From assembly GCA_046758445.1 (NCBI GenBank), contig JBHIAE010000002.1, positions 74,073 through 138,072 of the forward strand: DNA of 64,000 nucleotides, written 5' to 3'. Shown here in pieces: positions 48,057-62,544 of this stretch. The first letter of the stretch is position 1. Each line of letters opens with the position of its first letter. Made by a program: the position numbers and the translations under genes. The notes beneath the pieces are model-generated. The model searched no databases. It saw nothing but the letters and a program-made list of their open reading frames with translations, and was not told the origin of the DNA. This DNA comes from Candidatus Thorarchaeota archaeon. GTDB taxonomy: Archaea > Asgardarchaeota > Thorarchaeia > Thorarchaeales > Thorarchaeaceae.

Positions 48057-49008
48057 AGTTCAAGTGTGTATGAAGGTCATGCGCTGGACCGATACTACTC
48101 CGGTCTACCTTGCCAATGTGCATGATTGAGATCAACTCTAGTTGATCCTGCTAGAGGACACTGCTATCGGCTTGGGGTTAAGACATGCAAGTGGAACGGG
48201 CTCGCATCCGAGTCCGTCGCGAACGGCTCAGTAGTGTCGCTAACCTACCCTGTGGAGGTGGACACCGCCGGGAAACTGGCGTTAATCCACCGTAGGAGCA
48301 TTGTTCTGGAAATGATGTTGCTCTGATATGGGGGCCCTAGGTATGTTGGGCTCTCCGCCGCAGGACGGGGCGGCACCGGATCATACTTGTAAGTGGGGTA
48401 ATTGCCCACTTAGGTTGTGACCCGAACGGGCGATGTAAGTCGTGGCCCGGAGAAGGGCACTGAGACAAGGGCCCTAGCCCCACGGGGTGCAGCAGTTACG
48501 AAACCTCACCAATGCGCGAAAGCGTGAGTGGGCCAAGCCGAGTGATGGGGGATAACTCCATCTGTGGCGAATCCGTATGATGGATTGCTAGAAAGGAGAG
48601 GGCAAGGCTGGTGCCAGCCGCCGCGGTAAAACCAGCTCTTCGAGTTGTGTCCATGATTATTGAGCTTAAAGCGTTCGTAGCCTGTTTGGTAGGTTCCTGC
48701 TTAAATCCGGCCGCCCAACGGTCGGCCTGGTAGGAATACCGCCTTACTTGGGAGCGGGAGACGGCGACGGTATTTCACAGGTAAGGGTGAAATCTAATGA
48801 TCTGTGGAGGACCACCAGTGGCGAAGGCGGTCGCCGAGAACGCGTCCGACGGTGAGGGACGAAACCCAGGGGAGCGAATCGGATTAGATACCCGAGTAGT
48901 CCTGGGCGTAAACGATGCCCGTTAAGTGTTGCATTGGCCACGAGCCACTGCGGTGCTGTAGCGAAAGCGATAAACGGGCCGCTTGGGAAGTACGGTCGCA
49001 AGACTGAA

Positions 49009-49038
49009 TTTGAGAGCCGCTCCGACTCTCGACAGGTC
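49009..49038 (+). other. 16S mini-intron 1 (30 nt, ~E. coli 908)
   Basis: Splits GACTGAA|ACTTAAAGG; GAGAG/CTCTC hairpin, relaxed BHB. Confidence 0.88.
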
Positions 49039-49482
49039 ACTTAAAGGAATTGGCGGGGGAGCACCACAAGGGGTGGAGCTTGCGGTTTAATTGGACTCAA
49101 CGCCGGAAAACTTACCCGCCCAGACAGCCGGATGAGAGCCAGACTGATGATCTTGCTCGACGAGCTGAGAGCTGGTGCATGGCCATCGTAAATTCGTGCC
49201 GTGAGGTATCAGCTTAAGTGCTGCAACGAATGAGATCCCTGCCACCTAGTTGCCAGCCGGGGGCTTCGGCCCTGTCGGGGCACACTAGGGGGACCGCCAG
49301 CGAAAAGCTGGAGGAAGGTGGGGGCCACGGTAGGTCCGTATGCCGCGATATGGGCGGGGCCACACGCGTGCTACAATGGCAAGGACAATGCGTTACGACA
49401 CCGAGAGGTGAAGTCAATCGCGAAACCTTGTCGTAGTTGGGATCGGGGGTTGGAACTCACCCCCGTGAACCTGGAATCCCTA

Positions 49483-49512
49483 TCGACTGCAGACTCCCTG
49501 TAGTCGGGGAAA
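49483..49512 (+). other. 16S mini-intron 2 (30 nt, ~E. coli 1346)
   Basis: Splits GGAATCCCTA|GTATCCG; BHB with UCCC/GGGA helix, CGACTGCAG/CTGTAGTCG stem. Confidence 0.9.
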
Positions 49513-49552
49513 GTATCCGCGTGTCACTATCGCGCGGAGAATACGTCCCTGC

Positions 49553-60468: not shown

Positions 60469-60718
60469 CAGACTAACTCCTGAATCAAACTAAGCGGGTT
60501 TTTCCCTTTTCTATTTTGCTTGAAACCTGAAACTTCCACATTTTGAACCTCAAATTAGAAATACGTTTAATAAATTTAAATATGATTCTGTATCAAATAA
60601 AGTGTGGAGAATATCAAGCAACCTCCGAGAAATGAGGTTGAGTGAAACTCCCCGACCGGAAACGGGTCGGAAATTTAAATATGTGAGGTTAAATCTCGTG
60701 GGTCGCTCCAGTGGCGTG

Positions 60719-62368
60719 ATGATAACGGTCAAGGTCCCTGTGAAATGGGATGTGATGACAGACAGACAGAAGACACGTCTGTCCAGAATCACAAGTCGGG
60801 ATACCAGAGTCATCAAGGCCTATCTTGGAGTGATTGAGAAACACGAGAGAAACCTCCTTGTTGGAAAGAACAAGAAACGACTTGATGCAGGGAAGATAGA
60901 CGAACTAACATTATGCACGGATACAAGAACAGTTCTTCACGATTTCAAAGACAGATTCCCGAACATCTCAACGAACGAACTGCAGGAGTGTAGAGAGACT
61001 GCCATCGGAATGTGGAGGGTGTATCTCGCACTTGGTAGAAACAAACCACTACAGGGTACAGGGTACAGGTCAAAGAAGTTACCCCGTCACATGTTCACCC
61101 GGATGTTCAAGTTCACCTATACTCCTGAGAAAGAGATCAAACACTGGCTGATTTTTCGTGACTCGCTAGATTCAGTGAGAGAAGGAAGAAAGACTCATGA
61201 CAGGTTGGCAACACCTCTGAGTCCTTCATCATATCATCTCAATCGTCTGAAGTCTGGTGAGGTCAAATCTATCCAGATTGTGAAAGACAGGAATCGGAAG
61301 TGGTGGGTTCTTTTCAAGGTGAAGGTGAACTCAGAGTCTTTAGACGACGAATCAAAACCGTTCGCAGTGATTGGTATTGACTTGGGAATAAAGAAGGCAG
61401 TCTGTTCAGTAGTGCTGACCAAGAAAGGACTTCGACATGTAAGATATTGGACTGATAGAGAGAAGGCAAAACACATCGAAGGCTATGATAGGATGGTGGC
61501 CAGTCTTCAACAGAAGAGGGACTCTTCTCTCCATTCTGACGATGTCACAAGACGACTCCGAACAATCAGTTCAAGACGTGAGAACATCAGTTTTGACTAT
61601 GACCGTGTCCTTGTGAAAAGACTCGCTGAGCATATTCTCGAACTATCGCAAGAGTTTGACCTCTATGTTTCGATTGGCAAGTTGAAGGGAATCCGTAATC
61701 GTGCTAGGAAAGGTGATGGAAAAGGTCGTCGGTTTCGCGGCATGATAAACAGATGGTCTTTTGCTCGAATCACTAACTCTCTTCAGCACAAGCTCAGTAT
61801 GAGTGGATTCGACCCGAAGAGAGTCCATGCAGTATCAGAGGCATGGACAAGCATCAAGTGTCACAAGTGTGGGTCAAAAGGATACAGACCAAAACAGAGC
61901 TACTTTCTCTGTCACACCTGTGGATATCGCGACAACGCAGACAAGAACGCTGCAATCAACATTGCTCTGCGTTTGATTAGGCTCATTCCCTCCTTGAGGG
62001 GTGAGAAAGGACTAGGGACTTGGTTCTCTAGATGGAAGACCTCCCCGAAGACCCAAAGGACTCGTTCTAAAGGGATGTCCTTAGCTCCTGAGAGTTCACT
62101 AGACTCGTCTGTAGGGAGCACCGTGGCTGACTGTCATGACCAGGCTTCTCTTGAGGAGTTTGCGAGCAGTACCGACCTAGCCATGGAAAAGACCATGGAA
62201 ACACCGCCTGCCATCACGGAATCTAGTGACCATGATAGTATAGTGCAGCGGACAGAAACTCAGTCTGTGAAGAGGAGTCATATTCCAGTGACTCACAGCA
62301 AAACTCGTGCACACCCAACAGGAGAGGTCCTGCTGGTCGCTGGTGACAGCAGTCATGAGGAGGGTTGA
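60719..62368 (+). CDS. tnpB: TnpB/Cas12f-like RNA-guided nuclease with rearranged RuvC-II and a C-terminal extension
   Basis: RuvC-I VIGIDLG, SIGKL, SEAWTS, CHKC/CHTC Zn ribbon, RuvC-III NADKNAAINI; start moved to the ATG after the TTTAAATA box. Confidence 0.9.
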   Translation: MITVKVPVKWDVMTDRQKTRLSRITSRDTRVIKAYLGVIEKHERNLLVGKNKKRLDAGKIDELTLCTDTRTVLHDFKDRFPNISTNELQECRETAIGMWRVYLALGRNKPLQGTGYRSKKLPRHMFTRMFKFTYTPEKEIKHWLIFRDSLDSVREGRKTHDRLATPLSPSSYHLNRLKSGEVKSIQIVKDRNRKWWVLFKVKVNSESLDDESKPFAVIGIDLGIKKAVCSVVLTKKGLRHVRYWTDREKAKHIEGYDRMVASLQQKRDSSLHSDDVTRRLRTISSRRENISFDYDRVLVKRLAEHILELSQEFDLYVSIGKLKGIRNRARKGDGKGRRFRGMINRWSFARITNSLQHKLSMSGFDPKRVHAVSEAWTSIKCHKCGSKGYRPKQSYFLCHTCGYRDNADKNAAINIALRLIRLIPSLRGEKGLGTWFSRWKTSPKTQRTRSKGMSLAPESSLDSSVGSTVADCHDQASLEEFASSTDLAMEKTMETPPAITESSDHDSIVQRTETQSVKRSHIPVTHSKTRAHPTGEVLLVAGDSSHEEG

Positions 62369-62415
62369 ACATGGAAGTTGATGGTGGAGAGATTTCACTC
62401 GCCTTTTCAGGTCGG
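62160..62415 (+). ncRNA. Putative omegaRNA/tracr-like scaffold overlapping the tnpB 3' end (5' boundary uncertain)
   Basis: CCGACCTA (62172-79) is complementary to the repeat TAGGTCGG; TnpB omegaRNAs typically overlap the gene 3' end. Confidence 0.55.
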
Positions 62416-62544
62416 ACTAGGGATTCCGGGTTTGACTTGATTTCCAATAGGTCGGACCTTGTTACGACTCTATTCGTGTTAGGTAAGCCTTTCGCAAGCA
62501 GGAGAATATCACCAATCCACACACGTCGGGGATCACCTCCTAAG
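62408..62544 (+). CRISPR. Non-canonical mini guide array: (AG)GTCGG repeats plus three 16S-matching spacers
   Basis: GTCGG at 62411, 62451 and 62525, followed by ACTAGGGATTCCGGGTT, ACCTTGTTACGACT and GGATCACCTCCTAAG. Confidence 0.8.

Follow-up and report, generated by a model that had tools for sequence, protein, structure and literature searches.

Guides behind an Asgard archaeal tnpB gene match the 16S rRNA gene across its mini-introns and suggest RNA-guided trans homing

Why is the single 16S ribosomal RNA (rRNA) gene of an Asgard archaeon broken by five tiny introns, and why do short segments behind a nearby tnpB gene spell out this gene as it reads once the introns are removed? The question is raised by a 64,000-nucleotide (nt) stretch of DNA from a Candidatus Thorarchaeota archaeon (GenBank assembly GCA_046758445.1, contig JBHIAE010000002.1), here called the window. 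It is the end of contig C2 of an assembly of 3.25 Mb in 113 contigs, which is 92.7% complete and is labelled G000; labels with G, C and L are used below for genomes, contigs and loci. A first-pass annotation had described three segments after tnpB, each starting behind GTCGG, that match the intron-less 16S gene. This observation held, and the analysis described here leads us to lean, with considerable reserve, towards RNA-guided recognition of intron-less 16S ribosomal DNA (rDNA) that results in the trans homing or retention of mini-introns devoid of an open reading frame (ORF).

The 16S gene (48135-49791, + strand) was matched by the Rfam model RF01959 with 1191 bits at 48135-49722, and alignment extended its 3' end past the last insert to about 49791. 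In a motif scan of the 3.25-Mb assembly it was found in a single copy. Alignment with the 16S genes of relatives revealed five hairpin inserts of 30, 30, 30, 30 and 31 nt, the removal of which yields a canonical 16S including the 1492 region and the anti-Shine-Dalgarno end; relatives without inserts lack them precisely at these points. Mini-intron 1 (49009-49038, at about E. coli position 908) was delimited by its absence from relatives' 16S and by a 9-bp stem with compensatory changes, whereas mini-introns 2 (49483-49512), 3 (49553-49582), 4 (49686-49715, boundary ±2) and 5 (49748-49778, 31 nt, just upstream of the anti-Shine-Dalgarno end) were delimited by alignment. The introns at sites 1, 3 and 4 have one architecture, which consists of 1 nt, a 9-bp stem, a 5-nt loop, the returning 9 bp and a 6-nt tail. 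Among the site-4 introns 95% of the cells are paired, with compensatory double changes in 7 of 9 pairs. Because the shared stem shows such changes, the mini-introns appear to be selected RNA structures. In minimum-free-energy folds, intron 2 gave an outer helix, a bulge, a 4-bp helix, a 3-nt bulge and the intron helix, and intron 1 a 4-bp helix with one bulge; introns 3-5 were less clear. G000 encodes two EndA-family genes as well as RtcB, and the mini-introns are good candidates for host-spliced introns of the bulge-helix-bulge (BHB) type. The idea that they are remnants of TnpB right ends was considered as well, since intron 5 resembles the terminal hairpin of the scaffold described below and intron 1 ends in ACAGGTC. 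It was dropped because pairing with the upstream exon accounts for the ends of the introns and the other introns show no such likeness.

The guide segments stand directly behind the scaffold that overlaps the end of tnpB, all on the + strand. Guide 1 (ACTAGGGATTCCGGGTT, 62416-62432) matches the spliced 16S sequence at 16 of 17 positions, antisense across intron 2. Unit 2 (62433-62469) is composed of a truncated repeat ending in GGTCGG (62450-62455) and guide 2 (62456-62469), which matches antisense across intron 4 (14/14). Unit 3 (62470-62544) is composed of a repeat ending in CGTCGG (62524-62529) and guide 3 (62530-62542, extending to 62544), which matches in sense orientation across intron 5 (13/13). 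The hexamer preceding guide 1 is GGTCGG, as for guide 2. The units are spaced 40 and 74 nt apart, and their repeats share only (G/C)GTCGG and a few further bases. When the region downstream of tnpB was compared with spliced 16S by short BLAST, the three guides were the top matches and every one of them spanned a splice junction. For guide 3, a match of 15/15 to trailer copy B (one of the repeats of the sequence following the 16S gene) had been claimed in addition; this applies to the TCACCTCCTAAG part only, as copy B lacks the upstream GGA.

Across G000, the guide array is the sole place at which at least three spliced-16S 12-mers fall inside 250 nt, and short BLAST detected no rRNA matches downstream of the seven other tnpB copies with an assembled 3' flank. 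A further 26 scattered junction-spanning 12- to 14-mers of G000 were considered as extra guides and rejected; they stand outside a GTCGG context on coding-like words such as CTGCTTCTTGC and look compositional. One tnpB paralog of G000 (C24:28508-30343) is followed by two tandem units of its own (C24:30385-30480) with the nearly identical guides TGCATGCATCC and TGCATACATCC. A guide of this type also follows the orthologs in G017, G092 and G095, and a target for it was not found in G000.

In the intron-less gene all three protospacers have CGGAT as their 5' flank, two of them on the antisense and one on the sense strand, and CGGAT is presumed to be the target-adjacent motif (TAM). Target 1 (49468-49519, - strand) reads CGGAT (complement of 49515-49519), AC, intron 2 and TAGGGATTCCAGGTT, target 2 (49679-49727, - strand) CGGAT (complement of 49723-49727), ACCTTGT, intron 4 and TACGACT, and target 3 (49740-49788, + strand) CGGAT (49740-49744), GGA, intron 5 and TCACCTCCTA. 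In the resident gene introns 2, 4 and 5 split the protospacers of guides 1, 2 and 3 at 2, 5-7 and 3 nt from this flank, respectively, in agreement with the distances of 2, about 6 and 3 nt given by the first-pass annotation. Intron 3 is without a guide in G000, and is spanned by GGTCGG followed by ACGTCCCTGCTTCTTGC in the arrays of relatives. A guide matching intron 1 was absent from every array examined, in G000 as well as in relatives.

Where does a guide begin? The last approximately 250 nt of the tnpB ORF and about 45 nt past it are conserved among orthologs at the nucleotide level and contain helices with compensatory changes. This omega-RNA-like scaffold (62168-62415, + strand) overlaps the ORF tail and comprises an anti-repeat CCGACC (62172-62177), a terminal hairpin with a conserved TTCACTC loop and the closing GGTCGG (62410-62415). 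The anti-repeat stands just upstream of a conserved GCCRTGG and is complementary to the pre-guide hexamer. The pair reads CCGACC:GGTCGG in the clade of the window TnpB, AAGACC:GGTCTT in L067, L068 and L071, ATGACC:GGTTAT in the G000 paralogs on C37, C15 and C102, and takes a G·U-compatible form in G094. This covariation across clades points to a 6-bp helix lying against the first guide base and thereby fixes the start of the guide. Such a position of the helix is what one would expect where scaffold and guide of an omega RNA meet. For the guide, the hypervariable stretch in front of GTTCACTCA had been suggested as a possibility (Altae-Tran et al., PMC10691335). At the present locus this stretch is one arm of a hairpin; as it covaries with the sequence after the motif, it was interpreted as a stem and not as a guide.

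The tnpB gene itself (60602-62368, + strand) has a longest frame of 588 amino acids (aa), with conservation from about 60709. Its product matches the Pfam family Cas12f1-like_TNB (PF07282), aligns to Cas12f/TnpB structures of the PDB and reached 93.8 bits against NCBIfam guided_TnpB, just below the 100-bit cut-off. In an alignment of ten TnpBs that are 54-86% identical to the window TnpB, D260 (RuvC-I), D447 (RuvC-III) and the four cysteines of the Zn ribbon (CxxC...CxxC) are invariant. E413 is invariant as well and lies just ahead of the Zn ribbon, at the site used by TnpBs with a rearranged catalytic layout, a layout that is known for several archaeal TnpB branches and Fanzors (PMC10691335). 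Because the rearranged-class arrangement of D260, E413 and D447 is conserved, nuclease activity of this TnpB is plausible. Neither a Y1 TnpA nor Cas1 was found in the 92.7%-complete genome. The gene does not look like part of a transposon of the IS200/IS605 or IS607 type (IS, insertion sequence), which would have TnpA and defined ends: the tnpB locus is syntenic across genera, and the tnpB paralogs of G000 are only 43-58% identical.

To what extent the arrangement recurs was examined at the DNA level in 86 genomes of this family. The conserved tnpB 3' region turned up, with guides arrayed behind it, in 13 further genomes; in two of these (G046 and G067) tnpB is broken. An independent protein-based retrieval was in agreement with this result. 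The arrays of relatives contain 1-6 units of GGTCGG plus guide, and the guides fall into four classes: ACTAGGGATTCC... for the intron-2 site, ACGTCCCTGCTTCTTGC for the intron-3 site (sense, with the 5' flank AGAAT), ACCTTGTTACGACT for the intron-4 site and GGATCACCTCCT for the intron-5 site. The arrays are homologous from the end of the repeat to the end of the guide, with unrelated sequence between the units. A comparison of G000 with its congener G007 likewise shows conserved repeat ends and guides; the approximately 40-60 nt before unit 3 and the sequence downstream of it are unrelated. The locus of G057, which has a 55%-identical TnpB homolog, and the decayed locus of G067 with its broken tnpB carry two more sense-strand guides around site 4, for which the flanks GGGAG and GTAAC were found. 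In G094 an intron-3 guide follows a 42%-identical TnpB paralog. The 17-nt pattern of unit 2 was present in 8 of 86 family genomes and in 1 of 314 other Asgard genomes, where the lone match is probably due to chance. In six genomes (G000, G018, G057, G078, G087 and G093) tnpB shares a contig with the 16S gene and follows it at a distance of 4-12 kb. The extra distance in the window is due to a mercury-resistance cassette bounded by duplicated 16S trailer.

Taken together, the fixed guide start, the common CGGAT, the recurrence in 13 genomes, alternative introns at the targets, the linkage and the catalytic conservation support the core claim of the first-pass annotation, namely that the guides specify intron-less 16S and that introns interrupt the resident gene near each TAM. 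The mechanism that we propose would operate as follows. The vertically inherited, 16S-linked tnpB would yield an omega-type guide RNA, the scaffold of which overlaps the ORF end; CCGACC would pair with GGTCGG, and the guide would start directly after this helix. The last approximately 25-30 nt of the scaffold appear to have been reiterated together with a guide, resulting in a mini-array of three units. If the guides are expressed and loaded, and units 2 and 3 are used like unit 1, each guide together with the 5' CGGAT would single out a site in the 16S rDNA sequence that lacks mini-introns 2, 4 and 5. The single 16S gene of the cell would not be a target, because the 30-nt introns split each protospacer 2-7 nt from the TAM, and the splicing endonuclease and the RtcB ligase would restore normal rRNA. 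Intron-less 16S DNA might come from a relative as an incoming allele, or arise in a polyploid cell through reversion of one chromosome copy; TnpB would recognize and cut it. With a copy that bears introns as the template for repair, these would be installed or retained, which amounts to RNA-guided trans or 'collaborative' homing, and the ORF-less mini-introns and the linked TnpB block would be kept in the population. In its sequence logic the locus has what defines homing: a nuclease predicted to recognize the intron-less allele, an intron that disrupts the site, and linkage of the gene to its target.

Do introns and guides go together in other genomes? In approximately 28 family genomes with usable 16S, mini-introns were sporadic. 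An alternative intron, i2b, was found 6-7 nt upstream of site 2 in G052, G071, G087, G089 and G091, and another, i3b, at the border of TAM and protospacer of the intron-3 target in G091. Thus 6 of 8 distinct mini-intron positions in the family lie in or at the edge of four targets of about 22 nt in a 1500-nt gene. By our own arithmetic, about 6% would be expected by chance per position, which puts the chance of six in eight at roughly 1e-6. Intron 3 of G000 is identical at 29 of 30 positions to that of G065, a member of another genus (g5), while the intron 3 of G087, which belongs to the genus of G065, is unrelated, and the types of intron 4 divide within three genera. Intron variants that ignore genus boundaries are as expected for lateral movement, and variants common to several genera give an indirect hint of gene conversion. 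Two 16S sequences from the survey are recorded here for completeness. L084 (the 16S of G042) has three tandem 30-nt hairpin inserts (90 nt) in the helix 45 loop, inside the protospacer of the extra sense guide of G057 and G067. L011, the 16S of the 'same genus' metagenome-assembled genome (MAG) G014, shows clearly greater divergence (GGAATGCCTAGTAATCGCC...) and is probably mis-binned; its site 5 holds a 30-nt insert, with the flank CGGCT instead of CGGAT.

A guide was scored as good if its first 12 nt matched perfectly and the genome had an open tnpB frame. Of 14 such guides, 11 had an intron in their protospacer (three in G000, site 3 in G018, site 5 in G078, site 5 in G087, site 4 in G093, the sense guide for site 4 in G057, sites 2b and 4 in G091 and site 3 in G061), compared with introns at 10 of 20 sites with no or a decayed guide. 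A cross-genome survey of this kind had been called for by the first-pass annotation, and the direction came out as expected, with an association that is suggestive rather than tight. In G018 the guides for sites 4 and 5 are decayed and introns are absent there. In G046 a guide matches the intron-less 16S end of the same genome at 18 of 19 positions, and the tnpB frame is broken.

Several observations weigh against RNA-guided homing. The guide-intron association is weak and comes from mutually related genomes. Introns are also present at unguided sites (always so for intron 1, and in several genomes for introns 3 or 4); introns clearly can outlast guides. The site-2 guides of G078 and G057 have a 12-nt perfect seed and CGGAT, with mismatches at 13 and at 15 or 17, and meet no intron. 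In G052 a perfect site-4 guide faces an intron-less site 4, the two being on separate contigs of about 3 kb in a MAG of 700 contigs. G094, which is beyond the count of 14 guides, has a 17-nt site-3 guide behind a GGTTGG repeat variant, yet its 16S, on another contig, is without intron 3. The repeats of units 2 and 3 in the window are short and degenerate. Finally, the position of the canonical RuvC-II glutamate is an invariant glycine (G359) in the alignment of the ten TnpBs.

Of the other explanations the one that survives best is host escape alone. Here a selfish TnpB at the 16S 3' end targets 16S, and the mini-introns mark the survivors of self-targeting, selected since they break the protospacers, with no homing, drive or benefit of the introns. 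The differing intron positions within one protospacer (i2/i2b and i3/i3b) resemble repeated independent disruption and not copying, and the last guide of G075 continues directly into a full 16S trailer copy, like a true insertion flank. A nuclease that does nothing except endanger the single 16S gene of its host should, however, be lost, yet gene, catalytic residues and guides are conserved across genera. Moreover, near-identical intron variants are common to different genera while congeners differ, and mini-introns of the same architecture are present at unguided sites too. We regard escape alone as unlikely. Conservation of the gene and its guides and the cross-genus sharing of introns favor a maintained function, whereas the alternative positions within one protospacer favor selection for target disruption, and both may be true. 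The outcome may be a drive, intron retention, the exclusion of foreign rDNA or host escape alone; drive, killing and host escape had been the models of the first-pass annotation.

The missing RuvC-II glutamate leads to the next explanation, that TnpB binds DNA without cutting, similar to the nuclease-dead TldR repressors, and serves as a regulator or sensor on rDNA or incoming DNA, with the introns averting a roadblock on the resident gene. An immobile, syntenic tnpB, single-copy at its locus, is typical of domesticated TnpBs and would suit this role. So would the tnpB leader (60573-60686, + strand), in which a 13-nt TATA-like direct repeat surrounds a segment of about 88 nt that ends in a CCGACC-loop-GGTCGG hairpin. 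The second repeat copy comes directly after this hairpin, and the repeat sequence varies among TnpB clades, yet always matches its partner copy. The leader is possibly a mini scaffold with a guide aimed at the element's own promoter. The invariance of D260, the relocated E413 and D447, as in the active rearranged class, argues against a binding-only protein, and intron-less 16S is the sole evident target, with no other regulatory target apparent. Binding without cleavage is thus improbable.

A different origin of the units would be that they are no working guides at all, but decayed junctions of right end and flank that were left by past insertions of TnpB into 16S-like sequence. Such sequence is plentiful, as the 16S 3' end with its trailer is repeated at least 10 times in G000. 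Three copies of the 16S 3' end (with a copy of intron 5) plus a trailer of about 190 nt ending in ACTGTTGAGCACCC are in the window and seven, in antisense, on C14 (37.3-65.3 kb). The window trailer copies A (49792-49955), B (55094-55300) and C (partial, approximately 63930-63990) bound gene blocks behind the 16S gene, and these repeated tails look like a cassette array built from 16S ends. The short repeats of units 2 and 3 and the decayed arrays visible in G067, G046 and G094 would also be in line with fossils. On the other hand, the guides match the intron-less sequence, but the genomic copies of the 16S end carry intron 5. The matches end after 13-17 nt, whereas a true insertion flank would run on into 16S, two of the three guides run antisense, and as a set they lack collinearity with the gene. 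Guides are, in addition, kept in many genera despite diverged surroundings, and all targets have a common 5' flank. This makes fossil junctions very improbable. That the segments act on RNA, for instance as modification or processing guides pairing with 16S rRNA or its precursor, is hardly credible: guides 1 and 2 run antisense to rRNA stretches that are highly conserved and functionally important, but guide 3, the intron-3 guide and the extra guides of G057 and G067 are sense-strand, neither an Rfam family nor C/D or H/ACA features were found over the guide units, and the mixture of strands disfavors an RNA target together with the 5' flank common to the DNA targets, which makes sense only for the recognition of duplex DNA.

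An ORF of 1717 aa (55315-60468, - strand) is the constant upstream divergent neighbor of tnpB at orthologous loci, and its paralogs pair with tnpB paralogs on C37, C85 and C102. The protein gave no matches in Pfam, NCBIfam or PDB sequences and no annotated homologs. An AlphaFold model of residues 1-900 (pLDDT, predicted local distance difference test, 83; pTM, predicted template modeling score, 0.80) was related by Foldseek to RecA-fold ATPases (RAD51 paralogs, DnaB and KaiC; E 5e-5), and the N-terminal half is thus predicted to adopt a RecA/RAD51-like fold. A PD-(D/E)xK-like motif is present near residues 380-415, and a structure search with the C-terminal half matched nothing. An ORF of 221 aa (49990-50655, - strand) matches residues 1376-1611 of the 1717-aa ORF at 46% identity and is, judging from this match, a remnant of a second copy.

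With these components a more far-reaching reading can be formulated, namely an RNA-guided gene drive on the single 16S gene. TnpB with its proto-CRISPR mini-array would cut intron-less alleles at up to four sites, and thereby spread and lock in the 30-nt mini-introns and a linked block that comprises the giant RecA-fold/nuclease protein, TnpB and the cassettes bounded by 16S-trailer copies. We consider such a drive possible, though doubtful. If it exists, short archaeal rRNA introns would owe their existence to RNA-guided nucleases, and the locus would represent a natural intermediate between a single-guide TnpB and CRISPR arrays.

If TnpB does distinguish intron-less from intron-bearing 16S rDNA, it would be the first RNA-guided nuclease to take the role of an intron homing endonuclease, working in trans and on several sites simultaneously. 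There would then be a testable reason for the existence and patchy spread of tiny ORF-less archaeal rRNA introns, and an essential gene of the host would have become the fixed target of TnpB guides, its immunity being provided by introns that the host splices out. A natural locus in which one TnpB has several guides, a short repeat and, in the ORF tail, an anti-repeat would bear on how arrays of type V CRISPR came into being. The guide boundary and a candidate TAM are now defined for an Asgard TnpB clade whose guide was previously unlocated. A practical consequence is that universal 16S primers (1492R, at the 3' end) fail on these organisms.

The surroundings of the locus in the window are described briefly. 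Between trailer copies A and B lies the mercury-resistance block (49990-55032), which contains genes for a regulator of the ArsR family, for MerB and for a MerA-like pyridine-nucleotide disulphide reductase carrying an HMA domain. A gene for a ClpP-like serine protease of the SDH type (62635-63651, + strand) follows directly 3' of the guide array and does so likewise in G018, and in several other relatives the gene at this place differs from the ClpP-like one. Two transfer RNA (tRNA) genes at 45776-45879 and 33293-33407 (both - strand) span 104 and 115 nt and probably contain introns. The 23S rRNA gene (C53:12049-15379) is unlinked to the 16S gene and about 340 nt longer than the Rfam model.

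How does the locus compare with systems that are already known? The first-pass annotation was aware of no described system of this kind, and a search of the published literature likewise did not reveal a report in which TnpB guides target the intron sites of rRNA. TnpB/omega-RNA of IS200/IS605 and IS607 elements are reportedly RNA-guided nucleases that serve their own transposon, as is said to follow from work by Karvelis (2021), Altae-Tran (2021) and Meers (2023). The present system has in common with these OMEGA nucleases the RuvC/Zn-ribbon protein, the scaffold over the ORF 3' end, the guide directly after it, a 5' TAM-like motif and the logic of cutting the insertion-less allele. TnpB/omega-RNA (OMEGA) nucleases of these elements are described as RNA-guided homing endonucleases for their own transposon (PMC10690162). 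Unlike IS-borne TnpBs, the window tnpB comes without TnpA or another transposase found in the genome and is a fixed, syntenic gene and not a recently copied IS. Where they have one guide, the window locus has three and the arrays of relatives up to six. The protecting insertion differs as well: in IS elements it is the transposon itself between TAM and target, here it consists of 30-nt introns inside the protospacer that would be spliced by the host.

Arrays of type V CRISPR (Cas12f-like, V-U groups) derive from the duplication of omega RNA (PMC10691335). The regular, near-identical repeats, variable spacers and adaptation genes by which type V CRISPR-Cas is recognized were not found: the repeats are 7-30 nt long and degenerate, the units irregularly spaced and without Cas1, and the guides are conserved between genera and directed at a host gene, not at viruses. 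The reiterated units of scaffold end and guide downstream of the nuclease gene are nevertheless a feature that both have in common. Comparable as well are the 'aCas1-associated' TnpB groups Cas1H-Asgard-1 and -2 (PMC10691335), which have a GTTCACTCA-type motif downstream, Asgard hosts and a rearranged catalytic site, as has the locus described here. For these groups the hypervariable stretch before the motif was proposed as a possible guide and a target was not named (Altae-Tran et al. 2023, PMC10691335). In our analysis the guide is placed further 3', after GGTCGG, with the 16S gene as its target, and Cas1 was found neither in this genome nor in the 1717-aa partner.

Mobile elements that combine nucleases and introns offer another comparison. 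IStrons are group I introns fused to an IS605/TnpB element (PMC10690162, PMC4227781). They resemble the present case in that TnpB-type guides are coupled with an intron that makes the insertion harmless at the RNA level. In IStrons, however, intron and TnpB are one element, whereas here the 30-nt inserts are separate and TnpB lies 12 kb away. In the 16S genes of Thermoproteales, short (<50 nt) BHB introns consisting of a hairpin only persist by co-conversion with a neighboring LAGLIDADG intron (PMC4496867). Short hairpins at conserved positions (with approximately 908 and 1391 as common loci), a patchy spread and a reliance, putative here, on a nuclease encoded elsewhere are common to both. 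Unlike in Thermoproteales, a LAGLIDADG gene is absent at these sites in G000, the length is a uniform 30 nt, four sites fall within the last 310 nt of the gene, and the guided sites match TnpB guides.

The closest parallel in logic is found in phages. The cyanophage nuclease F-CphI with its psbA intron is reportedly an example of homing in trans. In T4, the free-standing nuclease MobE mobilizes the defunct nrdB intron (PMC2790892). Phage trans homing differs from what is proposed here, where RNA guides would direct a nuclease to several sites in a cellular rRNA gene and the introns are putatively host-spliced BHB introns instead of self-splicing group I introns. As in collaborative homing, the nuclease gene lies outside the intron and is nevertheless linked to the target, the nuclease would recognize the intron-less allele, the intron interrupts the recognition site, and the intron itself is immobile.

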